Shown: positions 15,730-40,288 of the stretch, one piece after another
Layout: every line of letters starts with the position of its first letter
How positions within the stretch are numbered: position 1 is the stretch's first letter
Source: Bacilli bacterium
GTDB taxonomy: Bacteria; Bacillota_I; Bacilli_A; Izemoplasmatales; Hujiaoplasmataceae
Direction: 5' to 3'
NCBI GenBank assembly: GCA_016935515.1
Contig: JAFGQT010000082.1
Span: forward strand, 1 to 62,969
Length of the DNA stretch: 62,969 bases
Translations under genes and position numbers: made by a program
The notes under the pieces: model-generated
The model's database searches: none
What the model was told of the DNA's origin: nothing
What the model saw: only the letters and a program-made list of their open reading frames with translations

Positions 15730-15737
15730 CTCTCAAC

Positions 15738-16081
15738 GGGGCTGTTCTGGACTCGACAGGATAGTTCGGGTTTGACAAGCATGCGATCGGCAGATCTAAA
15801 AATGCGCGGTTAAATATAACCGGAAACCCAAATTACAGTTACGCTGCTTAAGAAGAAGTAGCGAATTCAATCCTTCCAGCCTGCGGGTTTGATTGAATTC
15901 CAGTCAGCAGGATAGCGAAATATGTCGCTGTACTAGGCATACGAGCGAGATGAACAGTGCTGGTTGGCAGATAGTTGGTTCTGTGGCAGTCTGTCAACGA
16001 GAAAATCCATGGAACTAAGCATGTAGAAAATCAAATGTCCGGCTGTTTTGGACGGGGGTTCGATTCCCCCCAGCTCCACCA
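15738..16081 (+). ncRNA. ssrA: tmRNA (SsrA), 344 nt with encoded CCA; tag ORF GNPNYSYAA*
   Basis: The 5' end is ggggctgttctggactcgacagg. The 3' end ggacgggggttcgattccccccagctccacca forms the T-arm, acceptor stem and CCA. The ttaaatataac box precedes resume codon GGA at 15822, as in the Bacillus subtilis ssrA as I recall it. Stop TAA lies at 15849-15851. Confidence 0.95.
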
Positions 16082-16114
16082 ATGTTTTATACTCAAGTTT
16101 ATATATATAATAAA

Positions 16115-16161
16115 AGTGCTAATCGTGGCTGTTTTCTGCCGTTATTAGCGCTTTTGTTTTT
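16115..16161 (+). terminator. terminator-like hairpin after ssrA
   Basis: agtgctaat pairs with attagcgct (one mismatch) over a ~20-nt loop and is followed by tttgttttt. Confidence 0.5.
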
Positions 16162-16646
16162 GCTGAAAACACGTGTTTAAATCGTCGTTTTTGACTTTAT
16201 AAAGGACATATACTTATTTTCAGCTATTTCACATTGATCGGATTACGTATTTAGTTTATTCCTTGTTGGACGGGTTTTCGACCAATTGGACGCGGAGTTT
16301 AGATTATGACTTCAAATTTTACTTTTCGCTTCGATTTTTTGAACTTATACCAAAAAGCTGTACTTAGTGTATACTAGTATATATACAGGAGGTATCTCAT
16401 CAGGAGAGACCACTGCAATGAAACACTACTAGCGGCTACAGATAATTGGTGTTTTATTAATTTTGTTAATATTTGGTGGTTATGAACAGAAAATGAGTAA
16501 AATCATGTACAGGCCATCGGCAGGAATTCAACATCTTCTGCATCAGAAATGGCAGCAGAATGCTACAATTTCACTTGTTAATGGTAGCAATATTCTTCCT
16601 TGGATACCAAAGATATGAAAGGCATCTTTATTTTGCATTAATATAC

Positions 16647-16655
16647 TGATATAAT
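16647..16655 (+). promoter_or_regulatory. extended -10 promoter element (TGaTATAAT) for the IclR-family gene
   Basis: tgatataat is an exact TGnTATAAT match about 55 nt upstream of the TTG start and its strong RBS. Confidence 0.5.
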
Positions 16656-16708
16656 ATATTGCGGCTAAAATCTATTGTAGTAACACATTTTGATAGGGAG
16701 GAGGCGGC

Positions 16709-17497
16709 TTGCCAAATTATGGCTTGCTTGATAAACAGATGGACCACAAAAACATGGTACAAAAGACGGTCGATGTCATGCTCTTTTTGTCAAAGAACGC
16801 CCAGGGACAAAACTTGACGGAAATAGCTACTGGAGTGGGCATCCCAAAAACCACGGCATATGACATACTCAAGACTCTGAAAGAAAATGAAATTGTACAT
16901 TATGTCAATACAAGAAAGAAAACATATGGAATTGGTTGCCAAACTTATGCTATCGGCATGACATATCTTAAGACATCAAATCTATTCATGGTTGCACAAC
17001 CTTTCTTGATTGAACTTGCGGATAAGTACCAAAAGACAACGTTCATTGCCAAAAGGCACGGAGCTGAGTTTGCCTTCGTTTACAAATACGAGTCGCCATT
17101 TTCAAAAGTGACAACCGCAAATACGGGTGATCGGAAACCACTTCACTGCGCGTCCATAGGCAAATGTTTTCTGGCGTTTGACCCTGATGCAAAAGATTTG
17201 ATTGACACTATTCCGTTGACGGCACATACCAAGTATACAATTACCAACAGAGATAAACTGCGGGAGAACATCAAGAAGATCATCCACTTGGGTTATGCAT
17301 TTGAACACAGAGAATCTCAGGAACATATGGCTTGCATTGCTGCACCAATATACAACTCCGAAAACTCCATGATTGCGACTATCAGCATGAGTGGGTTGTA
17401 CCAAGAAAAAGAAGACTTGAACTCGCAAGGGGAAGAACTTAAGCAACTGGCAAAGGTGATATCGACACAACTGGGTTATGTGGAGAACTATAAGTGA
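16709..17497 (+). CDS. IclR-family transcriptional regulator (KdgR-like by context)
   Basis: The HTH region is NLTEIATGVGIPKTTAYDILKTLKENEIV, followed by an IclR effector domain. The TTG start is 5 nt after RBS agggaggagg; an alternative ATG lies at 16739. Confidence 0.8.
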   Translation: MPNYGLLDKQMDHKNMVQKTVDVMLFLSKNAQGQNLTEIATGVGIPKTTAYDILKTLKENEIVHYVNTRKKTYGIGCQTYAIGMTYLKTSNLFMVAQPFLIELADKYQKTTFIAKRHGAEFAFVYKYESPFSKVTTANTGDRKPLHCASIGKCFLAFDPDAKDLIDTIPLTAHTKYTITNRDKLRENIKKIIHLGYAFEHRESQEHMACIAAPIYNSENSMIATISMSGLYQEKEDLNSQGEELKQLAKVISTQLGYVENYK

Positions 17498-17522
17498 AGG
17501 CGCTGGCAAGCGCCTTTTTTTT
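17497..17522 (+). terminator. rho-independent terminator after the IclR gene
   Basis: aaggcgc-tggcaa-gcgcctt is followed by a T-run. Confidence 0.8.
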
Positions 17523-17601
17523 CGCAATTACGAACGAAATGTTGCGATTATTCGTAGAAAGGAATAAGGAAAAAAAATAAATAATATTTATACAATAATC
17601 A

Positions 17602-17630
17602 TTGACAAGCATATTTATGAAACCTATAAT
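17602..17630 (+). promoter_or_regulatory. consensus sigma-A promoter of the uronate operon
   Basis: TTGACA (17602-17607), an exact 17-nt spacer and TATAAT (17625-17630). A leader of about 160 nt precedes the first ORF. Confidence 0.7.
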
Positions 17631-17798
17631 TATTCTGGTATGCAAAAAAAAGCGTTTTTATAAAATAGTTTGTCATTTTTCTGCATCGGATCATCGACGA
17701 ATTGTACGAGAAAAAACATGAAAATGAACAGCGGATTACTATACGCAAATACGAATGGTTACCGTGTGTTATTCGGATTTGAGAACTGGAGCGTTTTT

Positions 17799-18374
17799 AT
17801 GAGTTATTCAAAATATCGTTTTGCCGATTTGACCGTTTTTTCGCTTTTGGCACTCTTAACGTCCTTCATCAGTGAATACGCTTATATCAAATTGTCAAAC
17901 CCAATGTTCTATCTTAATTTTGGTTTGCTCATATCAACGATTGCGATTGTCAGATGGAATCATCTTGGTGCCATTACGTATGTTGTTGCTGGCATCCCGA
18001 TGCTCTTAATGAGGACAGTCATAGACGCATATTGGGTACATTTTGGATTCTATGTTGTCGCTAACCTTTTTGTTGGTGGGGCTTGTTTAGTTTTCAAGTT
18101 TATTGACAAACAGAGAATCAGCAGTTCTATTTCACATACTCTGTTATATCTCTTCAGTGCATTTTTATTTGTTGCAATAGCAAAAGGATTTATACTCGCA
18201 ATTTCAGGAGATAACTTTTTAATCTCTGTTTATTCATACTTAGTCGCTGAATTATTCAATATGGTAATCACAGTTATTGCGTTTGTATTTATCAATCGTT
18301 TTGGAAAAGGATTGATTGTTGACATGTATTCTTACATCTTGGATGCTCAGAAGGAGACAATAGTGCATGACTAG
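17799..18374 (+). CDS. small polytopic membrane protein (191 aa, about 5-6 TM), function unknown
   Basis: Track ORF 17670..18374. The ATG at 17799 (MSYSKYRFADLTVF...) has a ggag RBS. It is the first gene of the operon and overlaps the next gene by 8 nt. Confidence 0.55.
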   Translation: MSYSKYRFADLTVFSLLALLTSFISEYAYIKLSNPMFYLNFGLLISTIAIVRWNHLGAITYVVAGIPMLLMRTVIDAYWVHFGFYVVANLFVGGACLVFKFIDKQRISSSISHTLLYLFSAFLFVAIAKGFILAISGDNFLISVYSYLVAELFNMVITVIAFVFINRFGKGLIVDMYSYILDAQKETIVHD

Positions 18375-19317
18375 ATCTGCGGCTTTTAGAAGAATCACGT
18401 CGCACCTTAAAACTGAATGGCAGCTCTATGTCATGTTGGTGCCAATGATAGTCTGGTTTGTTTTGTGGTCTTACAAACCAATGACAGGCTTATTGATTGC
18501 CTTCAAAAACTATCGACCGATTGACGGGGTTCTCGGCAGCCAGTTTGTTGGCCTGTACAACTTCAAGCAGTTGATTACGGGGACAGCATATTCAACCATG
18601 TTTTGGGGAGCGTTCCGGAATACTTTTCTGATTAGCATATATGGTTTGGTTTTTGGGTTCCCGGTGCCGATAATTTTGGCTCTTTTGCTGGGTGAGATAT
18701 CACACAACTTTTTTAGGCGGTTTTCACAAACCATACTATATTTACCGCATTTTCTTTCAGAAGTTACCATCACTGGACTTGTCATAACCTTGGTCTACTA
18801 TGGCGTCGATCACACGGGTATTTTAGCAAAGGTCTTTTATGATATCAATTTTATTGAGCCTGGAGTCAAGATCATTGAAACTGCGAAATATTTCAGGCCG
18901 ATGTACATAATAACTGGATTGTGGAAAGAAGCAGGATACAATTCCATAGTTTATTACGCCGCAATCATGGGTATCAGCCCAGTGCTTTATGAGGCATTAC
19001 GTGTTGACGGAGGGAATAAGCTTCAGGAAATTCGTTACGTTACGTTTCCTGGTATGGCACCAACTCTAACAATAATGTTGGTTATCAGAATAGGCGGAAT
19101 GCTTGCGGTAGGATACGAGAGAATCATCTTGTTGTACAATGCTTCGACCTATTCGACTGCCGATGTAATATCCACATTTGTCTATCGAGTAGGGTTGGAA
19201 GGAACTTACATGTCTCTTGCTGGTGCAGCAGATTTTTTCAACACTTTGATCGGTTTCATCTTGGTTATCGGCGCGAATTTCATTAGCCGCAAGGTGTCGA
19301 GCACTTCGCTCTGGTAG
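18367..19317 (+). CDS. ABC transporter permease, LplB-type (carbohydrate/CUT1-like)
   Basis: The 316-aa polytopic protein has an EAA-like loop (YEALRVDGGNKLQEIRYVTFP) typical of LplB/YteP-type permeases. Confidence 0.8.
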   Translation: MTRSAAFRRITSHLKTEWQLYVMLVPMIVWFVLWSYKPMTGLLIAFKNYRPIDGVLGSQFVGLYNFKQLITGTAYSTMFWGAFRNTFLISIYGLVFGFPVPIILALLLGEISHNFFRRFSQTILYLPHFLSEVTITGLVITLVYYGVDHTGILAKVFYDINFIEPGVKIIETAKYFRPMYIITGLWKEAGYNSIVYYAAIMGISPVLYEALRVDGGNKLQEIRYVTFPGMAPTLTIMLVIRIGGMLAVGYERIILLYNASTYSTADVISTFVYRVGLEGTYMSLAGAADFFNTLIGFILVIGANFISRKVSSTSLW

Positions 19318-19324
19318 GTGGATT

Positions 19325-20191
19325 ATGGACAGACTGTCGCGCAGTGACGTGATTTTTAAAATTATCGCATATCTACTTATTTCCGCCTTGGTTGTGATAG
19401 CTCTATATCCACTTATTTATGCCTTCAGTGCGTCAATCAGTGGAAGAGCTGCATATGAGACTGGAAGAGTTGTCTTTCTTCCGGTCGACCTCGACTTCCA
19501 GGTCTATAAGATATTGTTTGCTCGGAATGGTTTTTGGATATCGTACACAAATACGCTTTTCTACACGGTTTTTGGAACTATTTGGAGCATGTTCATATCG
19601 ACAACTGGAGCTTACGCTCTCTCAAAGCGTAAGTTACTGATGAGAAGACAACTAAACTTTTTTGTCGTCTTTACGATGTGGTTCTCAGCTGGAATGATCC
19701 CTTTATATCTCAATTACATGAAGATGGGCGTGGATACTCGTTGGGGAATCATAGTAGCATTCGGTGTCCAAGCTTTCAACATTATCTTGTTAAGAAACTA
19801 CTTTGAATCAGTTCCGAAAGAAATAGAAGAAGCCGCGCGGATTGATGGAGCAAATGAGTTTCAAACGTTCTCTAGGATCTACTTACCGATGTCAACAGCG
19901 GCTATCGCGACAGTGACTTTGTTTTACGCAACAAGTCGATGGAACGGTTATTTCTGGGCAAGCATCCTGTTGCAAAGCGCGAACGAGAAACCTCTTCAAG
20001 TTTTCTTGAGAACCGAAATCATGACCTATAGGACTTTGATTGAAAACATGGTGATTGATAATCTCACATTTTCGCCCGATTCCTATGCATACGCGATTCT
20101 TGTTTGCTCGATTATTCCGATACTGATCGTCTATCCGTATATTCAGAAATATTTCGCCCGGGGTGTAAATCTCGGCGGAGTCAAAGGATGA
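19325..20191 (+). CDS. ABC transporter permease, LplC-type (carbohydrate)
   Basis: It has the EAA loop EEAARIDGANEFQTFSRIYLP and is 288 aa long. Confidence 0.8.
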   Translation: MDRLSRSDVIFKIIAYLLISALVVIALYPLIYAFSASISGRAAYETGRVVFLPVDLDFQVYKILFARNGFWISYTNTLFYTVFGTIWSMFISTTGAYALSKRKLLMRRQLNFFVVFTMWFSAGMIPLYLNYMKMGVDTRWGIIVAFGVQAFNIILLRNYFESVPKEIEEAARIDGANEFQTFSRIYLPMSTAAIATVTLFYATSRWNGYFWASILLQSANEKPLQVFLRTEIMTYRTLIENMVIDNLTFSPDSYAYAILVCSIIPILIVYPYIQKYFARGVNLGGVKG

Positions 20192-20240
20192 GATAACTAG
20201 CAATAGTTAAAAATAAATGAAAGAATATTGGAGGGAAGTA

Positions 20241-22385
20241 ATGAAAAAAGTCTTAGGATTCATGTTGTTGACGGCTTTTGCTTTTGGTTTCGTTGCCTGC
20301 CAAGGCACGACAACCACTGTGCCTACTACGACGCAGACTACAACGACGGCGGCAGGAACGACTACCACCGGAACGACTACCAATGCCGGAACAACAACAC
20401 AAAGTTCCGCAGGAACAACAACGACCACTACCACCGCAACTGAGCCACCCGTTGATTTGGTAATCAACGTAGCTGGTGAGAACGACAAACGATTGTTTAC
20501 TTACTTGCAGGCCAATCCGCTTGAAATGCCCGATGGCACAATTATCGATTCTGGAGATCTGAAGCCTCTATGGCAGTATATTCAGAACGAAGTCAATATC
20601 GAGATCGATGATGTTGCAACGCCTGGGCAAAAACCGGCAGACATGTTTGATTTAGCGGCTGCCAATCAATTCGAAGGTGCGGATATCTTCGGTGGGCCGA
20701 ATCTTGGGCAGAAAATCATGAGTGCTGGAGTTGATGGTTATTTCGTAGATTTGTCTGAGCATATGGCAGAAATGCCGAATGTCAGCGCGTATCTAGCTGC
20801 CAATCCGTTGGTCATGAGTGCCATCACAGCGTCTGACGGTGGAATCTATCATCTGCCCTACATCGCAGAAATCAACAATTACGCCAGAATGTTTCTCGGA
20901 AGATACAGTTGGGTAACCGCATTGCTTGATGGAGAAGTTAATGGAAGCCCGTTCACTTTGGAAACCGAGACTGCTACGTTGAACGTCGCTTATGAAGCTT
21001 ACTGGAAAACAGGCACAGAGACTTTACCATATGGTGGATTAAGACAAACTACAAATGTAGTCGATCTCCAAAATGCAGCCGCCACCGGTGGGGTGCTCGA
21101 TCAAGCAACCGCATTGCAGGTGTTGAAAGACTACATTGACGCGACGTATCCGACACTTGCGAAACGATCAGACTTGTATCTTGATGAAACTGGACAATAC
21201 GATATTGATGAGCTTGTAGCCTTGTGGCGTGTAATCAAGTTGTCGCCCCTTTCGCTTTCTAAAGAAGCTTACGGGTCGGCAAAACCTGGAACAGTTATAT
21301 GGCCATTCTATGCTCGCCAATCTAACTATCGTGAAGAAGTACTACGTCTAATCCTTTTCTTTGGTGGGCAAAGAGTCCACGGATCCGACTCATATGGATC
21401 AAGATTTTATCTTGATGAGAACGGCGATTTGCAGTACTCATATTTCCAAGACGATTTCTTGCAAAATCTCAATCGTATCCGTGCAATGTTCTCCGAAGGC
21501 TTGGTTGACGAAAAACTGTCCGGTGCTGCAAACACAACTAACCTCAGAACCGGGTACATTTTCAAAGACACGGTCGAAACACAATTGGAGTATGGCTTCA
21601 TGTGCTATGACTGGACTTCCTCTACAACTGCCGCTTCTGGTGGACAAGATGATGTCAAGGCATTCTTACCACCTTTGACTACAACACCGGTATCCGAAGG
21701 TGAATTCATTCATTATGTTGAAAATACCAGGGTTGTTAAACCAGACGGATGGGGCATCTCCGCAAACATCAGCGATGAAGCTCTTGATGGCGCGCTGAGG
21801 CTGTTTGATTACTTGTTCTCGGTAGAAGGAGCAAAGGTCCAGAACTATGGAACTCCAGATTTATGGGTTCCTGATCAATTCTATACTAATCCAACTGACG
21901 GCGTTCAAGGACCATTATTCTCAACTTGGACTCGGGACAAAGCAACTGCAGTCACCAATGGCGACATATCATCATTCTTGCGAGATCATATTGGTGCTCA
22001 GATTCCGATTGGCTATCAAAAAGTAATTGGATTCGAATTGCAGTCAACCTCAGCGAATGGAATGTGGAGCTGGCAGCTTTACTATGGTGCCAATGATGGT
22101 GATGGTGTGATGATGAACTCCTACAGTGCTGAAAATCCATATTATCAACTTGTGCCGCCGATTTTCTCGCTGACCAGTGCGGAAAATGCCTTGCTGGCAA
22201 CGACTACAACCATGACAAGTGACGCACAGTTAATTGACCGCATGATGGCTTTCCTAGGTTCAAAGACTGGTGAAGGAATTCCTCAGACTTCTGAAGAAGT
22301 CAAAGCAATGTTCATTGCAGCCGGAGTAGGAACCTATATTTACATTTATCAACTAGCATTCAGTAGAATGTCAGGCGACGAATAA
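20241..22385 (+). CDS. extracellular solute-binding lipoprotein, large LplA-type, with a Thr-rich linker
   Basis: The ATG at 20241 has RBS ggaggg. The signal peptide and lipobox are MKKVLGFMLLTAFAFGFVAC, followed by a ~50-aa Thr-rich tract and a ~640-aa SBP-like body. Confidence 0.75.
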   Translation: MKKVLGFMLLTAFAFGFVACQGTTTTVPTTTQTTTTAAGTTTTGTTTNAGTTTQSSAGTTTTTTTATEPPVDLVINVAGENDKRLFTYLQANPLEMPDGTIIDSGDLKPLWQYIQNEVNIEIDDVATPGQKPADMFDLAAANQFEGADIFGGPNLGQKIMSAGVDGYFVDLSEHMAEMPNVSAYLAANPLVMSAITASDGGIYHLPYIAEINNYARMFLGRYSWVTALLDGEVNGSPFTLETETATLNVAYEAYWKTGTETLPYGGLRQTTNVVDLQNAAATGGVLDQATALQVLKDYIDATYPTLAKRSDLYLDETGQYDIDELVALWRVIKLSPLSLSKEAYGSAKPGTVIWPFYARQSNYREEVLRLILFFGGQRVHGSDSYGSRFYLDENGDLQYSYFQDDFLQNLNRIRAMFSEGLVDEKLSGAANTTNLRTGYIFKDTVETQLEYGFMCYDWTSSTTAASGGQDDVKAFLPPLTTTPVSEGEFIHYVENTRVVKPDGWGISANISDEALDGALRLFDYLFSVEGAKVQNYGTPDLWVPDQFYTNPTDGVQGPLFSTWTRDKATAVTNGDISSFLRDHIGAQIPIGYQKVIGFELQSTSANGMWSWQLYYGANDGDGVMMNSYSAENPYYQLVPPIFSLTSAENALLATTTTMTSDAQLIDRMMAFLGSKTGEGIPQTSEEVKAMFIAAGVGTYIYIYQLAFSRMSGDE

Positions 22386-22408
22386 TACTATCTTTCTCCT
22401 TGTCTGCG

Positions 22409-22435
22409 CTGGAGAGCGAGATCCTCGCTCTCCAG
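22409..22435 (+). promoter_or_regulatory. perfect 12-bp intra-operon hairpin after the SBP gene (no U-tract)
   Basis: The sequence is ctggagagcgag-atc-ctcgctctccag. No T-run follows, so it is probably an mRNA-stability or processing element rather than a full terminator. Confidence 0.5.
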
Positions 22436-22472
22436 TTGCCAGACAAAACAAGTCGGTTTTGATGGAGGGGCT

Positions 22473-23018
22473 ATGGCCAAGACCAGATTATACACATACA
22501 TTGTCTATCTCATATTCATGCTCGGTATCTATTTGGGCTTTTTTTACACTTTGGCTATGCTAACTGATGTAACTACGCTTGCCTTCTATCAAGATTTTCT
22601 CGATCCATCAGTCATTGATTTTGTTGCAGTTGCTCAAGAGACAAATAAGATATTGTTTAATTGGAGCTTAATATTGGTTGTGGGATCTGCAATCACACTC
22701 ATCCTTGGGTATCGAAAGGGAAGACCAGGTGTCATCAGTAATCTGCTTGCTTGTCTTGTAGGGTTGACCGCGATAGTAATCAACTCGTTATCGTATCAGA
22801 AGATCATTTCGTTAAATGTGTCATATTCTGAAACTGACACAATGTGGCCAGAGGCAACTGCCGGCCTGGCTGAATTGCTTGGTTTTGTACAACCTGGTAA
22901 CTTTTGGATTGGCAACGGACCGGCACTTTATTTATCATTGATCACGTGTTCGGCAATATTCACATTGGTCTCGTTGATTTGGGTCCTGAGACTTCTTGTG
23001 GGAGGTAAAGGAAAATGA
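22473..23018 (+). CDS. hypothetical polytopic membrane protein (181 aa)
   Basis: It has about 4-5 hydrophobic helices and no recognisable motif. The next ORF overlaps it by ATGA. Confidence 0.6.
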   Translation: MAKTRLYTYIVYLIFMLGIYLGFFYTLAMLTDVTTLAFYQDFLDPSVIDFVAVAQETNKILFNWSLILVVGSAITLILGYRKGRPGVISNLLACLVGLTAIVINSLSYQKIISLNVSYSETDTMWPEATAGLAELLGFVQPGNFWIGNGPALYLSLITCSAIFTLVSLIWVLRLLVGGKGK

Positions 23019-23443
23019 AACGGCCAAAGAGATTACTATATCAGACCAATAAAGGCGCTTACGCATTCATGTTCATTTTCATCGCGTGTTTGGTGGCTTA
23101 TACTAGCTTTGTTCTGAAGAGCATGCAAGTTGACCATATGATTTCTGCAGTATCCCTAATCAACATAGTTATGCTTTTGGCTGCTTTTCTTACAGCTGAA
23201 GAAATAAAAGTGTATAATCGCAAGTTTCAATTTGTACCTTTGCTGTACGCTGCCATCATGACATATCAATTATTGAATATCCCGACAGGAGTAGCGGGTG
23301 GCGACCTTATAATCGCCAAAATAAGCGCCATATTAGCCGTGGTGTCAGCGTTTGCGGCTTCAGGGCTATCTTACTTCAGAAACCGAATCCGCGCCAAGGT
23401 AATCGCGGAAAACAACATTGGCAAAAGCCAATTGACGAAGTAG
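23015..23443 (+). CDS. hypothetical polytopic membrane protein (142 aa)
   Basis: It has about 4 hydrophobic helices, is ATGA-coupled to the upstream ORF and ends 8 nt before the ATPase gene. Confidence 0.6.
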   Translation: MKRPKRLLYQTNKGAYAFMFIFIACLVAYTSFVLKSMQVDHMISAVSLINIVMLLAAFLTAEEIKVYNRKFQFVPLLYAAIMTYQLLNIPTGVAGGDLIIAKISAILAVVSAFAASGLSYFRNRIRAKVIAENNIGKSQLTK

Positions 23444-23451
23444 GTGAACTT

Positions 23452-24546
23452 ATGGCAAATTTGCGTTTTGAACACATAAAAAAAGTCTATCCCAACGGCG
23501 TAGAAGCCGTTGTTGATTTCAATATGGAAATATATGATCGAGAATTCATCGTTCTTGTCGGGCCTTCGGGGTGCGGAAAATCTACTGTTCTGAGGATGGT
23601 TGCTGGGCTTGAAAAGATTACTGCAGGGAACCTCGAGATTGACGGCGTGCGCGTGAATGACAAACCTCCTGTTGACAGAGACATTGCGATGATATTTCAA
23701 GATTATGCACTCTATGGAAACATGACTGTATATGAGAATATGGGCTTCAGCTTGACAGTTAGAAAGCGTCCATGTGATGAAATACATGATAAAGTAATAG
23801 CAGTATCAGAGATTGTCAAACTCGATAATGAACTGAATCGTCTTCCAAGAAATCTCAGTGGCGGTCAGCGTCAGAGAGTTGCCTTGGGAAGATCTATTGT
23901 CAGAAATGCGAAAGTGTTTCTGATGGATGAGCCACTGTCGAATCTTGACGCTAAACTGCGCGCGCAAACACGTAGAGAGATCATATTACTCCACAACAGG
24001 ATCAAACCGACAATTATTTATGTTACGCACGATCAGGTCGAAGCTATGACCATGGCTACGCGAATTGTGGTCATGAACAATGGTGTTATCCAACAGATTG
24101 GGACACCATATGAAGTATATCGACGCCCAGCAAACATGTTTGTTGCTGGTTTTATCGGGTGTCCAGCAATGAATTTTCTTAAAGGACAGATCGTTGAGGA
24201 CAGATTTGTTTCTGGCGCATTTGCCATCAAGTTGACTCCGACTGAAATTCAAAGAGTGTCTGGTCGACAAACAGTGATTATCGGGATCAGGCCTGAACAT
24301 CTCCTTGTTTCAGCAAATCCTGATGTTGCTTTATTGAAGCGGAAGATATCTGGGAAAATCAACTATTCTGAACTTCTAGGAGCGAATGCAACATTGAGAT
24401 TCTGCTTAAATCAGACTGAGATTGTTGCACAGGTCGAAAATAGTGAGTACCGTAATTCTGGTGAAACTGTCGATTTGTACGTCTCGCTTGAAAACGTTCA
24501 TTTCTTTGACCCTGAAACTGAAGCTCTGATTGAGGTGATTTCATGA
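23452..24546 (+). CDS. ABC transporter ATP-binding protein, MsmK/MalK/UgpC type (sugar importer ATPase with C-terminal regulatory domain)
   Basis: Walker A GPSGCGKST, signature LSGGQRQR, Walker B FLMDEPLS and a ~120-aa TOBE-like C-terminus are present. Confidence 0.9.
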   Translation: MANLRFEHIKKVYPNGVEAVVDFNMEIYDREFIVLVGPSGCGKSTVLRMVAGLEKITAGNLEIDGVRVNDKPPVDRDIAMIFQDYALYGNMTVYENMGFSLTVRKRPCDEIHDKVIAVSEIVKLDNELNRLPRNLSGGQRQRVALGRSIVRNAKVFLMDEPLSNLDAKLRAQTRREIILLHNRIKPTIIYVTHDQVEAMTMATRIVVMNNGVIQQIGTPYEVYRRPANMFVAGFIGCPAMNFLKGQIVEDRFVSGAFAIKLTPTEIQRVSGRQTVIIGIRPEHLLVSANPDVALLKRKISGKINYSELLGANATLRFCLNQTEIVAQVENSEYRNSGETVDLYVSLENVHFFDPETEALIEVIS

Positions 24547-25094
24547 ACGCACAGTTCGATAGCGCGAAATCTATGGTAAAAAAGACAGTTCAATCATTAT
24601 CAAGACTGATTCGGAATATTTGGAGTAAGATTCACGAATCAGCACTTGGTCAACCACGACAGTTCTCTGCGCTACTTGTCACTGGATCCGCGTTGTCACA
24701 ACTTGCACTTTCACAAATCCACATTGAAGCTCTAATCAGGGTGAAATTGACAGTCGCAACCGAAGGAGCATCCAATTACACTGCCGGAATGCCTTCAACA
24801 GGAATTGGTATGTTCAATTTTCTATTCATACTTTTCGGCCTCGTGTCGATTTTCAATGTTTTGAGAGCAACAACCCGTAGGAAAATGTTAGTTGGTCTTG
24901 TATCGTTGATTATCGCAGCCGGATTTGGCATCATTTATCTGCTGCAATTGACAAATCCTGATAATATTGTTGATTATATTGATATCGTCAAGAGCGTCAA
25001 TTTAGTTAAGGCAGCTTTTACTGTGAACGGAATAGCTGCTGCAATAATAATCTACGGAATGATAACTTTCGGAAAGCGGGAAAGAGTCCGGTGA
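24543..25094 (+). CDS. hypothetical membrane protein (183 aa)
   Basis: ATGA overlap with the ATPase gene. An amphipathic N-terminus is followed by about 3-4 TM helices. No motif recognised. Confidence 0.6.
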   Translation: MNAQFDSAKSMVKKTVQSLSRLIRNIWSKIHESALGQPRQFSALLVTGSALSQLALSQIHIEALIRVKLTVATEGASNYTAGMPSTGIGMFNFLFILFGLVSIFNVLRATTRRKMLVGLVSLIIAAGFGIIYLLQLTNPDNIVDYIDIVKSVNLVKAAFTVNGIAAAIIIYGMITFGKRERVR

Positions 25095-25588
25095 ACAAGA
25101 AGAACAAAGATGAAATCATCGCCTTGTTTTTGCGAATGTGGGTTGCTGGAATGGTATGCCTTTTTGTTGCATGGTCACCAATCGGCGGCGGCGAGAATGA
25201 ATCGGAGAATTTTCTTTTTCAAATGATCTTCTTTTTGGCCTTAGCTTTGTTTATCACGAATATGATCATTGTCAATCCTGTGATTCGAGGAATGTTCAAA
25301 ACAACTTTGGATTCGAAAGCATATTTCGCAGAATCAGTGTGGGTTAGGTCCATTCGGCACTTGATGCATTTTGGCAAAATGTTAGTGATTACGATTGGAA
25401 TCTGGTGTATCTATATCATCATTGATTCGTTGCTCGGTCTGATAGGTATAACTGATCCATACGGAAGGCCGGTATTGATGCTAGAACCGATTTCATTTGG
25501 CGTCATCTATGGTTTACTGTACTTCTCGTGGACCAAGATTGAAACCGTCGTAATCGGCTACATCAAGAAAAGGAGAATGTCCTCATGA
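25091..25588 (+). CDS. hypothetical polytopic membrane protein (165 aa)
   Basis: The GTG start overlaps the upstream stop (GTGA). It has about 4 TM helices and ends in an ATGA overlap with the next gene. Confidence 0.55.
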   Translation: MNKKNKDEIIALFLRMWVAGMVCLFVAWSPIGGGENESENFLFQMIFFLALALFITNMIIVNPVIRGMFKTTLDSKAYFAESVWVRSIRHLMHFGKMLVITIGIWCIYIIIDSLLGLIGITDPYGRPVLMLEPISFGVIYGLLYFSWTKIETVVIGYIKKRRMSS

Positions 25589-27600
25589 AAGAATTCATAT
25601 TGATTCCCAATGATGAGAAGTTCATCCAAGAGTCCGTAGCCTCAAAACAGTTATTGCTCGACGAATTGGTAAAAATCGCTGCAGAATACAGAAAAATGGA
25701 TTTACCTGAAACTGCTCCAGAAGCTTCAACAACATATATGGGAATCGCAATCTTCAACTTGGCCTTACTTTATCTGATCACTAAGAAAAGTGTCTATCTT
25801 GATGAAGCCAAAAGATGGATGAAGACTGTATGTCAACATGAAGTGTGGGGCTATGCCTATCTTGTCAATGTAGATTTGTCTGCATCATGGATACTATTTG
25901 GATTATCACTGGGATACCATTATCTTCATCCTTATCTAAGTGCTGCCGAGAAGGAAGAGATCAGACGCAAGTTAATCCTTCAAGGTGGTATATTATACGA
26001 TCATCGTGTTAGGACTTATGGCAAAGGTTGGTCTACACAGTACTTCCAGAATCATAATTGGATAAACATGACCGGATTGGCTACAGTGGGTTATGTTCTC
26101 AGGGAAGAGTATCCGTTGGCTCAGTCTTGGGTTGAAGCTGCAAAGGAAAACTTTCGGCATGTTTTTGATGATTTGGCTGATGATGGATCTGACTATGAAG
26201 GTGTACCTTACTGGCATTATGGCGTCCTTTGGCTGCTTGTCTACGCTGATATAAGTAGACAATTCGAGGGACTAGATTATTTTGCCTCCAGCGAGTTTTT
26301 GAAAAACACAATGAATTTCAGACTATCACAGTCGTTGTCAGACCTGAAACAATCACTCAACTATGGTGATGCCCATGATTATCGGAGTGGCAACAGCATA
26401 GCAATCTATTACTGTCTCGCGAGCAGGTATAATGATGGACAGGCTCAGTTCTTTGGAAATTATGTCTTGAAAAATTTTTATGATGAGGAGCAGATGCAAT
26501 CTCACATTAAGCCAGGAATCAAGCCGGAAATAGGGCTTGCATTGATCTGGTACAATCCGGAAGTGATTGAGACTCCGATTGGCCGTGATTATGATTATTC
26601 CTTCTTCCCCGATCTTGGGCTCATGAATATCAAGAACAAATCAAAGATGTTCTCAATCAAATGCTCTAAACCGGGAGGTAACAAGCAATTTGAGCGGGCA
26701 AGACGTTACCTTGACTCGGGGATCGACGTTCTTGGCCTGAGCCATCATCATCCTGACAATTCCCATTTCATTTTCGCCTGTGAAGAGGATTTCTACGCGA
26801 TTGACGATGGATATAATCGTAATTGCGCAATGAAACACCACAATTTGGTTACGGCAGGAGATTATGGGGCGGAAGTGGAAATGGTCAGTGATGTCTATGG
26901 AGCTTCAATCCGGGAAAAACTGAACCAAGGAAGCCTTTCATATGAAAACTATGGAGGACGTGTGATCTTCGCTCGTGATTTGGATGGAATAGCAGTCTAT
27001 CAGTGCGATAATTCTGGAACTTTTCATGACGATGCAAAAATCCTCGCTTCAACCCGAACAATCATCACGCCGAGACTTGATTATGTTCTAATTTTTGATC
27101 AATTGTTATCATTGCAGCAGCATCACTTCCGCTGGCATTTTCATTCAGATGTCGTTCCTGTCGTGAGCCACGAGTACATATCCATCAAGAAGAAGCATGA
27201 CCTCCGTTTATACCGGATATTGCCAAGCAAACATACCATATATCAGGAGGTTCAGCCGATCAAGGCCTTGTTCACACCTCAAGAACCTAACGACTATCAT
27301 ACTGTAGCCATGATTGACTCCGTTACAGAAAGCCTGCCAAAGGAAAGCGAACTATTCCTCAATGTTCTGTCGTTCGATGATCTGCACATAATATCTACAC
27401 CGGGCATGCTGGAAGTCAAGTTTGGCAATAGAATCGACAGAATAACTTATGAATTGAATGCTAGGGAAAACGAACAGTTCATCATCGACCTAACCGAGGA
27501 CATTGGTGGCGAAGCCGAAAGGCATCTTCGACTGGTTCAACTCGGATTTGGGAATAATGCCCACACAGAAGTAGAGGTAGTTGACAATGAAGCAATTTGA
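25585..27600 (+). CDS. heparinase II/III-like polysaccharide lyase family protein, cytoplasmic (671 aa)
   Basis: QYFQNHNWINMTG (the N-H pair of the alpha/alpha toroid active site) and GLSHHHPDNSHFIF (the H.H.D motif of the C-terminal beta-sandwich) are present. There is no signal peptide. Confidence 0.65.
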   Translation: MKEFILIPNDEKFIQESVASKQLLLDELVKIAAEYRKMDLPETAPEASTTYMGIAIFNLALLYLITKKSVYLDEAKRWMKTVCQHEVWGYAYLVNVDLSASWILFGLSLGYHYLHPYLSAAEKEEIRRKLILQGGILYDHRVRTYGKGWSTQYFQNHNWINMTGLATVGYVLREEYPLAQSWVEAAKENFRHVFDDLADDGSDYEGVPYWHYGVLWLLVYADISRQFEGLDYFASSEFLKNTMNFRLSQSLSDLKQSLNYGDAHDYRSGNSIAIYYCLASRYNDGQAQFFGNYVLKNFYDEEQMQSHIKPGIKPEIGLALIWYNPEVIETPIGRDYDYSFFPDLGLMNIKNKSKMFSIKCSKPGGNKQFERARRYLDSGIDVLGLSHHHPDNSHFIFACEEDFYAIDDGYNRNCAMKHHNLVTAGDYGAEVEMVSDVYGASIREKLNQGSLSYENYGGRVIFARDLDGIAVYQCDNSGTFHDDAKILASTRTIITPRLDYVLIFDQLLSLQQHHFRWHFHSDVVPVVSHEYISIKKKHDLRLYRILPSKHTIYQEVQPIKALFTPQEPNDYHTVAMIDSVTESLPKESELFLNVLSFDDLHIISTPGMLEVKFGNRIDRITYELNARENEQFIIDLTEDIGGEAERHLRLVQLGFGNNAHTEVEVVDNEAI

Positions 27601-29650
27601 TGTTTCACAGTTGAAAAAACGTCTGATGACTAATCCTGATTATGTCGATATGCTCCATGACATGAGCGACAAAGTTGAGGATTTCTTCTTGACTTTCGAA
27701 GATGGACCCGAAAATCATAGTCGTTGGGGACATCATTATTTCTGTTCGACTGATGGAGCTCCGTTGTCATATGATCACAAGAACCGGAAATTGCATGTCT
27801 GTCCAATCTGTCAACGAAACTATACAGATCAACTGTATGATGATGTTTGGATTACGCTCTACAGAAATCAAGCAGTCATCAGTCTGTGGATGTCTGCGCT
27901 TCTCTCTCGTCTGACGCGTAAGAAGATTTATCAAGATCATATTCGGTTGATGATCGATACCTATGTAAGGCAATATGACTATTATTCTCTGCACAACAAA
28001 GAGAACGAGAATTTCCAATCCGTTTCCGCCACAAAATGGGGATGTGGAAGGATCATGCCACAAGGACTGAATGAAGCTATTTTTGTTATGAGGATGTTGA
28101 CGGCATTCTCAATCGTCAAAAATCTCCTGACAGATGAAGAACTTGCCTCGATACATAGATTATGCGAAAACGCTTCGGAATTATTGATTAGTCAAATCAA
28201 CAAGATTCACAACATTCCTGTTTGGTACTGCAGTGCGCTTGTTGTGATCGGAGCGTTCACAGACAACACGAAATTGATCGATGACGCATTCAATGGTAAA
28301 TTCGGTTTATATCAACAATTGAAAGAAGGGCTAAGCAAAGATGGTTTATGGTATGAGGGATCGATTCATTATCATTTCTTCCTGTTGGAAGCCCTTATGA
28401 CCGCTTTGTTGTTTGCCCAATCTAGCAAGTTCCACCCAGACAAAAGATTTATCATGCAGGTTAGGAAAATGCTTCTCATGCCAAGACAATATGCCTTTGA
28501 CAATCAGGTTCTTCCAAATCCCAACGATGGGTGGCCGGACATCAACCTTAAAACATATCTTCATGTTTATGACATGGCTTCAAAGTATTTTGGCAGATAT
28601 TCAGACATCGGCGAATTTGCAGCACAGATCGATGCCAGTCCAGTCAAACGCAAAGGTTTGCCGCTGTCAACGCCTTACTACTATGACGATCGCATATCTT
28701 TAGAGAGATTGACTTGGAATCCCGACTTTGAGCAGATCTCATATCAAAAATCAGTTGGATCTTCAACCAATTTGAAGAGTTCACAATGTGTCATTCTAAA
28801 GAATGACAGGATCAATGTGTTTTTGAAATACGGGCACAACACCCCAAGTCACGCCCATCCAGACAAGATGAACATCGAAGTCACTATTGATGGCAAAATG
28901 TTGACCCGAGAGCTGTCTAATTCAGGATACGGGTCCACCATCTGCAATGAATGGTATCGTACGTCTCTAGCCCATTCTACAGTGGTGGTTAACGGCAAGA
29001 ACCATGTTTCTCTGAGACAAGGAAAGTGCATCTTCTTCAGGAAAGACTACGTAAAAGCCAGCACTCTAGATGTGTATCGAGAAGAAACTCAATCATTAAA
29101 CTCCCTGAAGCGTTCGATGAACAATGATGAAGTCATAGCATATTTGTCTAGAATAGAGCATTGCACATCTGAAGAGGCTGAGTCAATGATTGTCAAGTCA
29201 AATATTCCGACAATACAACCTGGTTCAATCACATCGGATGAACCATGTGTCGATTTTTTCAGAACAATCAAGTTGACCGAAAATGGTTTTGTGGACACTT
29301 TTGAAACTTCTGCCTCTGAACCGGTTTCATTAGATTATGTCTTTCACTCACAAGCAAAGTTGGTCGATCCGCCGAAAAAAGCAAAAGCTGATCCTGGGTT
29401 TTACGCCAACGGCTATCAATATCTTCAAGAGTTTGGAAAAGTAATAGACAGAAACAAACACATACTGCTCAAGTGGGATCTTGAAGGTGTTAAGTTGACT
29501 TCCTTGATTACACTGTATGGAAAGATGAAACTTTATCTGATGAAAACACTGGATAATCCTGCCAACGAAACTAGAGATACATTTATCATTCGTTGCTCAA
29601 GTAGAGATGCCAAGTTCATCGTCAGATGGAAAATAGAGGGAAAGGATTGA
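27587..29650 (+). CDS. heparinase II/III-like family protein with an N-terminal Cys/His cluster, cytoplasmic (about 687 aa)
   Basis: The ATG at 27587 has RBS gaggt and overlaps the upstream gene by 14 nt. Motifs are WGHHYFC...CPIC, GSIHYHFFLLEAL and GHNTPSHAHPDKMNIEV (H.H.D). There is no signal peptide. Confidence 0.6.
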   Translation: MKQFDVSQLKKRLMTNPDYVDMLHDMSDKVEDFFLTFEDGPENHSRWGHHYFCSTDGAPLSYDHKNRKLHVCPICQRNYTDQLYDDVWITLYRNQAVISLWMSALLSRLTRKKIYQDHIRLMIDTYVRQYDYYSLHNKENENFQSVSATKWGCGRIMPQGLNEAIFVMRMLTAFSIVKNLLTDEELASIHRLCENASELLISQINKIHNIPVWYCSALVVIGAFTDNTKLIDDAFNGKFGLYQQLKEGLSKDGLWYEGSIHYHFFLLEALMTALLFAQSSKFHPDKRFIMQVRKMLLMPRQYAFDNQVLPNPNDGWPDINLKTYLHVYDMASKYFGRYSDIGEFAAQIDASPVKRKGLPLSTPYYYDDRISLERLTWNPDFEQISYQKSVGSSTNLKSSQCVILKNDRINVFLKYGHNTPSHAHPDKMNIEVTIDGKMLTRELSNSGYGSTICNEWYRTSLAHSTVVVNGKNHVSLRQGKCIFFRKDYVKASTLDVYREETQSLNSLKRSMNNDEVIAYLSRIEHCTSEEAESMIVKSNIPTIQPGSITSDEPCVDFFRTIKLTENGFVDTFETSASEPVSLDYVFHSQAKLVDPPKKAKADPGFYANGYQYLQEFGKVIDRNKHILLKWDLEGVKLTSLITLYGKMKLYLMKTLDNPANETRDTFIIRCSSRDAKFIVRWKIEGKD

Positions 29651-29655
29651 TAATA

Positions 29656-29994
29656 ATGAGAAATGTATGGCGAAACAACGAAGTTCAGCTCGAACAGCTT
29701 GACCAACACGTTTCGCGAAAAGTGCTTGCTCACATGAAAAATTTGATGGCGGTAGAAGTGATTTATGACATCGGTGGAATTGGGGCAGAGCACGCTCACC
29801 CTCATGAACAGGTTACCTATGTGATCGCAGGTAAGTTCCGTTTTCGCGTCGGAGCTGATTACCATGATATCACCAAAGGGGACTCTATTTACTTTCCACC
29901 AGATATCATTCACGGATGCATCTGTCTTGAAGCAGGAAGATTGCTAGACGTTTTCACACCTCAACGCGAGGACTTCATCAAGGAGGATAATTAG
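29656..29994 (+). CDS. kdgF: KdgF-like cupin (unsaturated uronate linearising enzyme family)
   Basis: It is a 112-aa single cupin with metal motif HAHPHEQ...GDSIYFPPDIIHG and a C-terminal LLDVFTPQREDF. It sits between the lyase-like genes and an SDR gene. Confidence 0.65.
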   Translation: MRNVWRNNEVQLEQLDQHVSRKVLAHMKNLMAVEVIYDIGGIGAEHAHPHEQVTYVIAGKFRFRVGADYHDITKGDSIYFPPDIIHGCICLEAGRLLDVFTPQREDFIKEDN

Positions 29995-29996
29995 GA

Positions 29997-30746
29997 ATGA
30001 AACGAGTTGCATTAATAACAGGCGGAACTGGTGGTATCGGCTTCGCGACTGCTAGAGAGCTGGGTCTTGATGATTATCACATTGTACTAAACGGAATTTT
30101 CCCAGATCAAGGCGTAGAGTGCGTCAAGAAACTGACGGAGGAAGGCATCTCTGCCGAATATGTCAATTTTGACTGTACCGATGAAGCCCAGGTCAACCAA
30201 CAGATTGCCGCAATCGGACTCAAACACGGAAAAATCGATGCCTTGATCAATGCTGCCGGGGGGCTTTTTGGCAGAAGCAGCTTCGAAGATATGTCCACCG
30301 AATTTTATCGTTCAGTGATGGCGTTGAATCTTGACACTGTTTTCTTTGTCACGAGAGCTTCAATTCCGTACCTTAAGAAATCAGACGATGCTTCAGTGAT
30401 AAATTTCACTTCAATCGCAGGCTATAACGCTGGTGGGCCTGGAGCTGGTGTGTATGGAACCGCAAAGGGCGCAGTGATGGTTTTGACTCGAGCTTTGGCC
30501 AAAGATCTTGCGAAGTTCTCAATTAGAGTCAATGCTGTCAGCCCAGGAACAATTGACACGCCTTTTCATCAAGAGACAAAGACCAAGAATCCACAGTTGT
30601 TCGAATCATGGAAAAACTTGATCCTAATGAAACGTTTTGGAGAGGCTTCTGAAGTTGCTTCAGTCATTGCTTTTCTCGTCAGCAAGAAAGCTTCATTCAT
30701 AACAGGAGAAACCATTCAAGTCAATGGAGGACAAGATTTCCTATAA
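29997..30746 (+). CDS. SDR-family oxidoreductase (KduD/DEH-reductase-like by context)
   Basis: TGGTGGIG, NAAG and YGTAK (YxxxK) motifs are present, and the length is 249 aa. Confidence 0.75.
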   Translation: MKRVALITGGTGGIGFATARELGLDDYHIVLNGIFPDQGVECVKKLTEEGISAEYVNFDCTDEAQVNQQIAAIGLKHGKIDALINAAGGLFGRSSFEDMSTEFYRSVMALNLDTVFFVTRASIPYLKKSDDASVINFTSIAGYNAGGPGAGVYGTAKGAVMVLTRALAKDLAKFSIRVNAVSPGTIDTPFHQETKTKNPQLFESWKNLILMKRFGEASEVASVIAFLVSKKASFITGETIQVNGGQDFL

Positions 30747-31067: not shown

Positions 31068-32009
31068 ATGAAATTCATTGAACTAATTCTCGATTTCCTA
31101 AATGGACAAATGAATACACCTGTACCTTATCAGTCACTATCGCAAAGCTGGTTTCACTATCTTGCCTTGAGTAGTGCTGTTCTTGCTTCTGTGCTTGCGG
31201 TACGATGGCTTAAGAAGGCTGATGAGAGTCAATTGAGACGCTTTTTGCTCGTTTTTGCCAGTCTTTTGCTAACATTTGAAGTTTATAAGCAGCTCATTTT
31301 CAGCTTTCAGGCAGACTGGAACTATCAATGGTACATTTTCCCGTTTCAGTTTTGCTCGACGCCGATGTACATTGCTTTGATTGCGGGACTAACCAAAAAT
31401 AAGAAAATCCAACAAGCTTTTATAAATTTTCTTGCAACTTACGGTTTTTTCGCGGGACTTGCGGCCATGATCTATCCGAACGATGTATTCGTCGCTACGA
31501 TTGGAATAAATATCCAGACGATGATACACCACGGAGCCATGATGGTTGTAGGCATTGCCCTGCTTCTAAATAAAGTCAAACTTGTTCCCACTTCGATTGT
31601 CAGTGCAACCGCAGTTTTTTCAGTTCTCGCTGTGTTGGCGATATTGCTGAATTTTGTGCATAATACATGGATTGCTGAAGGTACTTTCAATATGTTCTTC
31701 ATCAATCCTCAATATAACAACCACCTACCCGTGCTGACCTCCATTGAACCGCTGGTGCCGCATTTCATTTTTGTCCTGATCTATATTGTTGGGTTTGCTT
31801 TTGTAGCCTACTTGATGCTCTTATTAGGTACGGGCATCTTGGCAGTTGACTCATATAGAAAATCAGTTAATCAGAAATTCTGGAACAATATAGTTGCAGA
31901 ATACGAATCAAATTATGATTCTTCAAGTTACAACCGTTGGAAAAACGACGTCATCATAGGATCAACTGCGAATCAACATGTGGGGCCTATTTTTTCCCCT
32001 GTGAATTGA
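31068..32009 (+). CDS. hypothetical polytopic integral membrane protein (313 aa, about 7-8 TM)
   Basis: Hydrophobicity pattern only. It may be YwaF/TMEM164-like, but I cannot confirm that. Confidence 0.5.
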   Translation: MKFIELILDFLNGQMNTPVPYQSLSQSWFHYLALSSAVLASVLAVRWLKKADESQLRRFLLVFASLLLTFEVYKQLIFSFQADWNYQWYIFPFQFCSTPMYIALIAGLTKNKKIQQAFINFLATYGFFAGLAAMIYPNDVFVATIGINIQTMIHHGAMMVVGIALLLNKVKLVPTSIVSATAVFSVLAVLAILLNFVHNTWIAEGTFNMFFINPQYNNHLPVLTSIEPLVPHFIFVLIYIVGFAFVAYLMLLLGTGILAVDSYRKSVNQKFWNNIVAEYESNYDSSSYNRWKNDVIIGSTANQHVGPIFSPVN

Positions 32010-38229: not shown

Positions 38230-38242
38230 GTTATCTATTTGG

Positions 38243-38279
38243 AGCAGGGTCGAAGATAAACTTCGGCCCTGCTTTTCTT
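38243..38279 (+). terminator. hairpin with U-tract between the SBP and permease genes (partial terminator/attenuator)
   Basis: agcagggtcgaag pairs with cttcggccctgct (one G-U) and is followed by tttct. Confidence 0.6.
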
Positions 38280-38296
38280 AAAACAGGAGGGAATAT

Positions 38297-40278: not shown

Positions 40279-40288
40279 GGAGGACATA

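Follow-up and report, generated by a model that had tools for sequence, protein, structure and literature searches.

Four small polytopic membrane proteins (M1 to M4) are encoded around the gene for an ATP-binding cassette (ABC) importer ATPase at positions 22,473 to 25,588 of a 62,969-nucleotide (nt) contig from a Bacilli bacterium of the Izemoplasmatales (GenBank JAFGQT010000082.1, assembly GCA_016935515.1; this whole stretch is termed the window below). Together with a facultative fifth protein (M0), they are best explained as accessory membrane subunits dedicated to a distinct AlgM1M2S2/AlgQ-type (CUT1) importer subfamily equipped with an enlarged binding protein, a reading to which a probability of roughly 0.55 is assigned on the basis of the sequence comparisons described here. 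As part of the same explanation, importers of this M type would take up uronate-containing oligosaccharides, for example, fragments derived from alginate, glycosaminoglycans, or pectin. Comparison of related loci demonstrates that M1 to M4 have been inherited together with the importer as one module, with a fixed gene order and tight or overlapping junctions.

Results

Distribution of the Module

Database searches gave 8 close homologues of M4 and 21 homologues of M3, and when the M4 profile was searched exhaustively, 61 clusters (50% identity) emerged, of which 29 had E <1e-10. From the contigs of these homologues, a scan of reference genomes with a 12-sequence M4 alignment, and metagenomes, ∼70 loci (designated by L numbers) were gathered and uniformly annotated, each retrieved through M3 or M4 as bait. 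The full M1–M4 cassette was present in ∼45 loci in the order [M0]-P1-P2-binding protein-M1-M2-ATPase-M3-M4, where P1 and P2 are permeases and the brackets denote that M0 homologues were found in most, but not all, of the loci. In every full-cassette locus with upstream sequence, the P1-P2-binding protein genes directly preceded the cassette. Over 20 loci, the M1-M2 junction was typically −4 nt, M2 and the ATPase gene were 6–17 nt apart, the ATPase-M3 junction was −4 or −8 nt, and M3 and M4 were separated by 10 nt or less.

The first-pass annotation of the window had raised the question of whether the cassette is missing from related loci; it was present in all of those with enough sequence except one (L055). 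In L055 (6900–8564), an inverted GH88 fragment abuts a truncated M3 at the contig end, and the housekeeping genes guaA and guaB lie upstream; this sole locus with a broken gene order looks rearranged. Host names, taken from the labels of metagenome-assembled genomes (MAGs), included Izemoplasmatales, Acholeplasmataceae, Paracholeplasma, Anaeroplasmataceae, and Haloplasmataceae, as well as Spirochaetes, Spirochaetales, and Ornithospirochaeta, and further loci came from human-gut and marine metagenomes. The G+C content of the loci ranged from 0.29 to 0.53. The module was constant, whereas the downstream enzymes varied between loci (DUF4962 and heparinase-type lyases, GH88, and GH28).

In L077, which has the most distant cassette, the operon begins with a further gene for a MalK-type ATPase (46% identical). 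The cassette ATPase gene of L077 contains one in-frame TAG at the conserved Met of THDQxEAMTM, and L078, from a second sample, has no stop at this position; the TAG is either a sequencing error or the mark of a strain-specific pseudogene.

The M Genes and Their Products

In the window, the gene order M1-M2-ATPase-M3-M4 and the lengths of the genes agreed exactly with the first-pass annotation when the open reading frame (ORF) coordinates were examined, and the junctions were likewise the same when read from the sequence. ATGA overlaps join M1 to M2, the ATPase gene to M3, and M4 to the downstream lyase gene; M3 and M4 share a GTGA overlap, and the stop codon of M2 (TAG) is followed by 8 nt (GTGAACTT) and the ATG of the ATPase gene. 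Hydropathy analysis gave 3–4 transmembrane (TM) segments in each of M1–M4 at the threshold used, which bears out their earlier description as polytopic. Applying the positive-inside rule, we read each of the four as having four helices with both termini in the cytoplasm (N-in/C-in).

M1–M4 are real genes: the same four were annotated in three public assemblies made independently from this organism (one of them the MAG GCA_016937095.1), their homologues are 35–68% identical and carry invariant motifs, and ratios of nonsynonymous to synonymous substitution rates (dN/dS) are low. The dN/dS ratio was saturated for most pairs and usable only for L009/L015 and L011/L014; for the least saturated pair, values of 0.08–0.17 were obtained for M1–M4 versus 0.01–0.06 for the importer core. 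By this measure, the M proteins are constrained, yet faster-evolving than the core. Chance ORFs and an alternative genetic code were rejected in view of long genes that end in TGA, the conservation of homologues, and purifying selection. In L010 (7435–7972), M1 is frameshifted into ORFs of 107 and 73 amino acids (aa).

The conserved residues of M1 lie in two extracytoplasmic loops (L27, T31, Q55, N58, and D122). In M2, they comprise a K-x-LYQ-x-N motif in the cytoplasmic N-terminal tail, a cytoplasmic K-x-Y loop, and a basic C-terminal tail. M3 carries a polar QLA-x-SQ-x-HI motif in TM1 and FxxILFGLxxxFN in TM2, and a 16-aa insertion in an outer loop of M3 is restricted to a close clade. M4 has motifs at both membrane faces (R-x-W-x-AG at the inner end of TM1, NP at the end of TM2, and EP-x-x-FG at the start of TM4) together with a conserved cytoplasmic loop between TM2 and TM3. 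In a human-gut clade (L054 2991–3644 and L057 5736–6389), M2 is lengthened to 217 aa by an additional cytoplasmic stretch of ∼75 aa at its N terminus; this stretch is rich in K and E, probably forms a coiled coil, and does not occur in the other loci.

Sequence and Fold Searches

M0–M4 of the window had no match in Pfam or NCBIfam; the best scores for M1–M4 (E 0.013–0.18) were far under the curated cut-offs, and no Pfam family recurred when 11–52 diverse members of each M0–M4 family were scanned singly. Profiles of M0, M2, M3, and M4 had no match among PDB sequences, and that of M1 had only non-significant matches (best E 0.01). M4 was the protein among M0–M4 whose modeled fold was compared. 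With 9 close sequences, its AlphaFold2 model was poor, with a predicted local distance difference test (pLDDT) score of 63.5; with 52 diverse family members, the pLDDT was 91.4 and the predicted template-modeling score 0.85. The latter model consists of four long helices, of which TM2 and TM3 reach into the cytoplasm, where they are joined by a short helix. Foldseek comparison of this model with the PDB returned a best E of 1.1, with every template-modeling score (TM-score) <0.45.

Several specific identities were considered and rejected. Those of M4 with FtsX, an aquaporin, or an export-gate protein rested on weak Foldseek matches (FtsX, 8x61_D, E 7.4, TM-score 0.31). Subunits of the FtsX/MacB type (type VII) would fit a four-TM, N-in/C-in topology, but the TM1-TM2 loops are merely 7–30 aa long, there is no Pfam FtsX match, and the partner ATPase is of the MalK type. 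A type I permease split into M1 plus M2 or M3 plus M4 was discounted in view of the lack of a BPD_transp_1 profile match, of an EAA-like motif, and of paralogy among the M proteins. No M protein matched an energy-coupling factor (ECF) profile, and M0 matched neither DUF624 (PF04854) nor the ECF S-component families (PF12822 and PF07155) when 11 family members were scanned at E <= 0.1. Paralogy among M0–M4, such as a derivation of M1/M3 and M2/M4 from a duplicated half-transporter, received hhalign probabilities that were all <5%. Literature searches found no description of such proteins. The statement of the first-pass annotation that no motif links M1–M4 to a known family thus survived the Pfam, NCBIfam, and PDB profile searches and the Foldseek comparison of M4, and by these searches, M0–M4 are five mutually unrelated, undescribed families.

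Importer Core and Binding Protein

P1 (residues 9–315) aligned with residues 3–300 of AlgM1, and P2 aligned with AlgM2 over its full length. The permeases had first been labeled as CUT1/Lpl components; their assignment as permeases was correct, but they are specifically homologues of AlgM1 and AlgM2, and the system is of the AlgQ/AlgM type. The cassette ATPase matched the Pfam families ABC_tran (7e-30), OB_MalK (4e-11), and TOBE_2 (1e-4) and aligned end-to-end with MsmX (6yir, 1e-111) and AlgS (2e-90) in the PDB.

The binding protein, at 722 aa, had no Pfam match. Residues 363–614 only matched AlgQ1/AlgQ2 (E 3e-25), leaving the N-terminal half without a match, and tblastn of the plasmid collection with this protein covered residues 321–627 only. 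Alignment with a 522-aa homologue from a system lacking M genes showed the N-terminal half to be divergent and to carry an insertion of ∼100 aa. Three PDB binding proteins of ∼480 aa (5gx8, 5gub, and 5xs8), which we take to be Smon0123 of Streptobacillus moniliformis, also matched (E ∼5e-9). Across the loci, M-type binding proteins were 637–778 aa long, versus 490–522 aa in systems without M genes; they share the conserved insertion of ∼100 aa and the divergent N-terminal half, and in most loci, they are lipoproteins. The linker that follows the lipobox in the window (20290–20480) is of low complexity, with ∼60 Thr, Ala, and Gly residues, and gives rise to false ORFs both in alternative frames and on the complementary strand. 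The corresponding linkers of relatives are shorter or acidic (E/P-rich).

The AlgM1M2SS heterotetramer, when placed in proteoliposomes together with AlgQ2 and ATP, carries out oligoalginate transport (PMC9751261), and in the 4TQU structure, the N-terminal lobe of AlgQ2 docks on AlgM1. Given that the core encoded in the window is complete by comparison with AlgM1M2SS, and that this heterotetramer is self-sufficient, M0–M4 are surplus to the known design. The earlier statement that such an importer needs just two permeases is supported: P1, P2, and the ATPase align end-to-end with AlgM1, AlgM2, and MsmX/AlgS, a match to AlgQ1/2 exists for the C-terminal half of the binding protein, and the AlgM1M2SS heterotetramer transports in proteoliposomes. 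That the membrane part in the window is likewise limited to two permeases is made less likely by the co-inheritance of five extra membrane genes with the module.

Systems without M Genes

Plasmid p202 of Pseudooceanicola algae carries the operon ATPase-P1-P2-binding protein (522 aa)-DUF4962-SDR-cupin, the P2 of which is 48.6% identical to that of the window. This locus contains no small membrane genes, and its genes are contiguous, leaving no room for any. A tblastn search with M4 found no match in 72,556 plasmids. The window itself contains a second CUT1 sugar ABC operon (36886–41395) in which a binding protein of 447 aa and two permeases are encoded along with a separate MalK-type ATPase (38% identical to that of the cassette), again with no small membrane genes. 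Taken together, these controls indicate that the M proteins typify neither the organism as a whole nor AlgM-type importers at large. When the loci retrieved with M3 or M4 are set against the systems lacking M genes, the M genes correlate with an enlarged binding protein.

Operon Layout and Neighboring Genes

The features of the operon are collected in Table 1. The count of four unrecognized membrane proteins given by the first-pass annotation stood, but a fifth, M0, had been missed at the head of the operon; it was called as a 191-aa protein in public assemblies, and its gene overlaps the start of the P1 gene by 8 nt. The perfect consensus promoter upstream of M0 is likely to be the promoter of the operon.

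Table 1. Features of the M-type importer operon in the window and of the two ATPase genes of L077
Feature	Position	Strand	Description
IclR/KdgR-type regulator	16709..17497	+	Pfam IclR_C 1e-35, NCBIfam KdgR 6e-29
Intrinsic terminator after regulator gene	17496-17517		
Sigma-70 promoter, perfect consensus	17602..17630	+	TTGACA-17-TATAAT, 12/12 match, upstream of M0
M0	17799..18374	+	Fifth orphan membrane protein, 191 aa, ~6 TM
P1, AlgM1-type permease	18367..19317	+	EAA loop (LYEALRVDGGNKLQEIRYVTFP); 4tqu_M AlgM1, E 1.8e-78
P2, AlgM2-type permease	19325..20191	+	EAA loop (EIEEAARIDGANEFQTFSRIYLP); 4tqu_N AlgM2, E 1.6e-86
Binding protein, enlarged lipoprotein	20217..22385	+	722 aa, Thr-rich linker, lipobox read
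Stem-loop between binding protein gene and M1	22400..22447	+	No U tail; free energy (dG) -38.6 kcal/mol, z -4.3
M1	22473..23018	+	181 aa, 4 TM, N-in/C-in (ORF list, hydropathy)
M2	23015..23443	+	142 aa, 4 TM (ORF list, hydropathy)
ATPase, MalK/MsmX/AlgS-type ABC	23452..24546	+	364 aa, C-terminal OB/TOBE domain (Pfam)
M3	24543..25094	+	183 aa, cytoplasmic N-tail plus 4 TM (ORF list, hydropathy)
M4	25091..25588	+	165 aa, 4 TM (ORF list, hydropathy, AlphaFold2)
DUF4962/DSE-like polysaccharide lyase candidate, cytoplasmic	25585..27600	+	Pfam DUF4962 1e-14
Heparinase II/III / alginate-lyase-like enzyme	27587..29650	+	PL17-like architecture; Pfam Hepar_II_III_C, Alginate_lyase, Hepar_II_III_N; start as called in public assemblies
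Cupin (KdgF-like) and SDR (KduD/DEH-reductase-like)	29656..30746	+	Uronate catabolism (Pfam)
L077 ATPase genes	1087-2187 and 8427-9500		Positions in L077

The gap between the binding protein gene and M1 is the sole sizeable one of the operon (70–118 nt across loci). In 15 of 15 loci in which it was long enough to fold (among them the window, L009, L011, L014, L015, L025–L028, L030, L039, L042, L050, and L069), it contained one or, often, two highly stable hairpins (z −3.5 to −8.8), none followed by a U tail. Such hairpins may constitute an element for mRNA stabilization or processing that sets the ratio of two operon blocks. Given their conservation, the blocks M0-P1-P2-binding protein and M1-M2-ATPase-M3-M4-enzymes may differ in expression level. 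The stoichiometric co-production proposed in the first-pass annotation is accordingly retained within the block of M1, M2, the ATPase, M3, M4, and the lyases, but is not extended to the permeases, from which the conserved hairpin region splits it.

ORFs homologous to the DUF4962-type lyase candidate had no TM segment. The cupin and SDR genes are kept downstream in most loci, and the loci of relatives additionally encode Eda, KdgK, KduI, and KduD. Since an IclR/KdgR-type regulator, lyases, a KdgF-like cupin, and an SDR adjoin the importer genes, the locus is classed as a uronate-oligosaccharide utilization operon.

Directly downstream of the operon lies the gene for a 313-aa membrane protein of the TMEM164 family (31068–32009, Pfam E 4e-19), a family known mostly from eukaryotes; it was seen only in assemblies of the organism from which the window derives (L001/L004 and L005). 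In L009, an Acholeplasmataceae-like contig, the operon is followed (15729–20160) by heliorhodopsin, tocopherol-cyclase-like, and phytoene desaturase/synthase genes. Elsewhere in the window, smpB (15280–15729) is immediately followed by a transfer-messenger RNA gene (15738–16081) with the tag peptide GNPNYSYAA, the second sugar ABC operon is followed by GH13, glycerate kinase, glycosyltransferase, GH4, dehydrogenase, and GH65 genes, and positions 52723–55599 encode a 958-aa cytoplasmic signaling protein with multiple PAS domains, a GGDEF domain, and an HD-GYP-type HD_5 domain.

Discussion

If the M proteins are importer subunits, they would be produced at a constant ratio to the ATPase and surround the permease dimer in the assembled complex. 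Here, M1 and M3 could assist in docking the outsized binding protein or in keeping it in place, a role suggested by the conservation of their outer faces together with the altered N-terminal half of the binding protein. By contrast, conserved cytoplasmic tails and loops suggest that M2 and M4 could touch the ATPase or the permease coupling region and thereby stabilize or gate the complex. Correlated divergence over 20 loci (partial r of 0.57 for ATPase-M2, 0.56 for M3 with the N-terminal half of the binding protein, and 0.62 for M1-M4) offers a weak lead in the same direction.

A number of points tell against the interpretation of the M proteins as subunits. The correlated divergence is confounded by saturation (p-distances within the M families were 0.69–0.77) and by non-independent pairs. 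To our knowledge, the addition of 16–22 TM helices beside a 12-TM core is unprecedented in a type I importer, and P1 and P2 have no insertions relative to AlgM1 and AlgM2 that could be docking sites. No cassette-specific ATPase signature was found, with only 3 positions clade-specific against two outgroups. All loci having been retrieved through M3 or M4, importers with enlarged binding proteins were sampled only where M genes occur. Finally, the second ATPase gene at the start of the operon in the distant L077 fits an arrangement of two modules too.

Such an arrangement is the main rival. M1–M4 would then be a hetero-oligomeric module of their own, with 16 TM helices, that works on the same MalK-type ATPase beside, but separate from, the P1-P2 importer, as either a second transporter or a mechanotransducer passing ATP-driven movement to the outer face. 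This is judged unlikely. With a single exception among the loci of sufficient length, the ATPase gene does lie amid the M genes and not beside the permease genes, and ATPases of the MsmX type are known to work with more than one pair of permeases; P1 and P2, however, match the two grooves of the ATPase dimer, and M1–M4 contain no EAA-type coupling motif. Although the hairpin region parts the P1-P2-binding protein block from the M1-M2-ATPase-M3-M4 block, and L077 has its added ATPase gene by the permease block, the cassette was never seen without P1-P2-binding protein where sequence existed. The extended TM2 and TM3 of the M4 model, with the short helix that joins them, resemble a coupling-helix layout, but this model has no fold similarity to FtsX/MacB or another ABC membrane domain (best FtsX match at E 7.4, TM-score 0.31), and neither internal pseudo-symmetry nor paralogy was seen in M1–M4.

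Roles in regulation or in the anchoring of enzymes are less probable. As regulators, M1–M4 would form a membrane sensor or brake acting on the ATPase (e.g. its OB/TOBE domain) or on the binding protein, tuning uptake to substrate or cell state, much as inducer exclusion acts on MalK. Such a role, which we regard as improbable, would account for the conserved cytoplasmic tails and loops of M2 and M4, the retention of the regulatory OB_MalK/TOBE domain in the ATPase, the weak correlated divergence of the ATPase and M2, and the rate at which the M genes evolve (2–10 times that of the core, a common trait of peripheral partners). Four distinct polytopic proteins would nevertheless be much machinery for regulation in an operon that already contains an IclR regulator, no sensor or signaling domain is present in M1–M4, and the strict order and near-universal presence of the M genes look more like those of structural parts. 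It is more doubtful still that the M proteins act in the pathway and not on the importer, by anchoring the cytoplasmic lyases at the membrane for substrate channeling or by protecting the membrane against uronate products that are acidic or reactive. Every locus is concerned with uronate oligosaccharides, and in many of them, M4 shares an ATGA overlap with the catabolic gene that follows; the identity of that gene, however, differs (DUF4962 lyase, heparinase-type lyase, GH88, or cupin) while M1–M4 are constant, it is absent or on the opposite strand in L066, L069, and L077, and homologous loci of proteobacteria contain these lyase, cupin, and SDR genes but no M genes.

Returning to the interpretation of the M proteins as accessory subunits, a bolder form of it can be put forward tentatively and at somewhat less than even odds. 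Here, a subfamily of type I sugar importers would be a larger assembly in which 4–5 unrelated polytopic proteins with new folds are obligatory subunits coupling the enlarged binding protein to the ATPase, or else constitute a second, non-EAA partner of a MalK-type ATPase. Either arrangement would define a new architectural class of ABC importer and five new protein families. More generally, if the M proteins are subunits, they would represent a new way of docking large binding proteins or of controlling a MalK-type ATPase, and they would be required for reconstituting or engineering such importers, e.g. for alginate or glycosaminoglycan use. In addition, five sets of "hypothetical proteins" gain names and a testable context.

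Comparison with Known Systems

Few membrane machines are understood as well as type I ABC importers, and their composition, with two permease domains, two ATPases, and one binding protein, is regarded as settled. The module described here adds 16–22 TM helices in five undescribed families, occurs in at least two phyla, human-gut organisms included, and is always tied to the uptake of acidic plant, algal, or host glycans; importers of this well-studied kind probably have extra, undescribed membrane subunits.

Precedents for small, operon-encoded membrane proteins that become part of an ABC complex are LptC of LptB2FGC, CbiN of CbiMNQO, and the Mce-associated Mam proteins. These belong to other transporter classes and usually have one or two helices, in contrast to four 4-TM proteins, and no sequence or fold similarity to them was found with the PDB profiles of M0–M4 or with Foldseek for M4. 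The Lpl-type systems of Bacillus subtilis (LplABC and YtcQ-YteP-YtcP) share the broad permease class with the importer of the window, and the cassette ATPase is closest to MsmX. Their operons encode a DUF624 membrane protein (YesL or YteU) by the permeases, similar in size and position to M0. They are not known to have more than one such protein, however, in contrast to five here, and these systems usually lack an operon-encoded ATPase and share MsmX; M0 and 10 of its homologues, moreover, match neither DUF624 nor any other Pfam family. Smon0123, the binding protein of the glycosaminoglycan importer of S. moniliformis and presumably the protein of the three PDB entries above, is smaller at ∼480 aa. 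The p202 system of P. algae has the same permease family and the same DUF4962 lyase, SDR, and cupin neighbors, but its ATPase gene is first in the operon, and its binding protein is 522 aa long.

The closest described system is the Sphingomonas sp. A1 importer AlgM1-AlgM2-AlgS2 with AlgQ1/AlgQ2 (PDB 4TQU), to which P1, P2, and the ATPase are homologous over their full lengths (AlgM1 2e-78, AlgM2 2e-86, and AlgS 2e-90). The two systems are alike in belonging to the type I importers, in possessing two EAA loops, in handling acidic oligosaccharides, and in feeding cytoplasmic lyases. By contrast, AlgM1M2SS has no further membrane subunits, whereas the module described here includes five extra membrane genes and a binding protein that is divergent in its N-terminal half, corresponding to the lobe that docks on AlgM1 in 4TQU.

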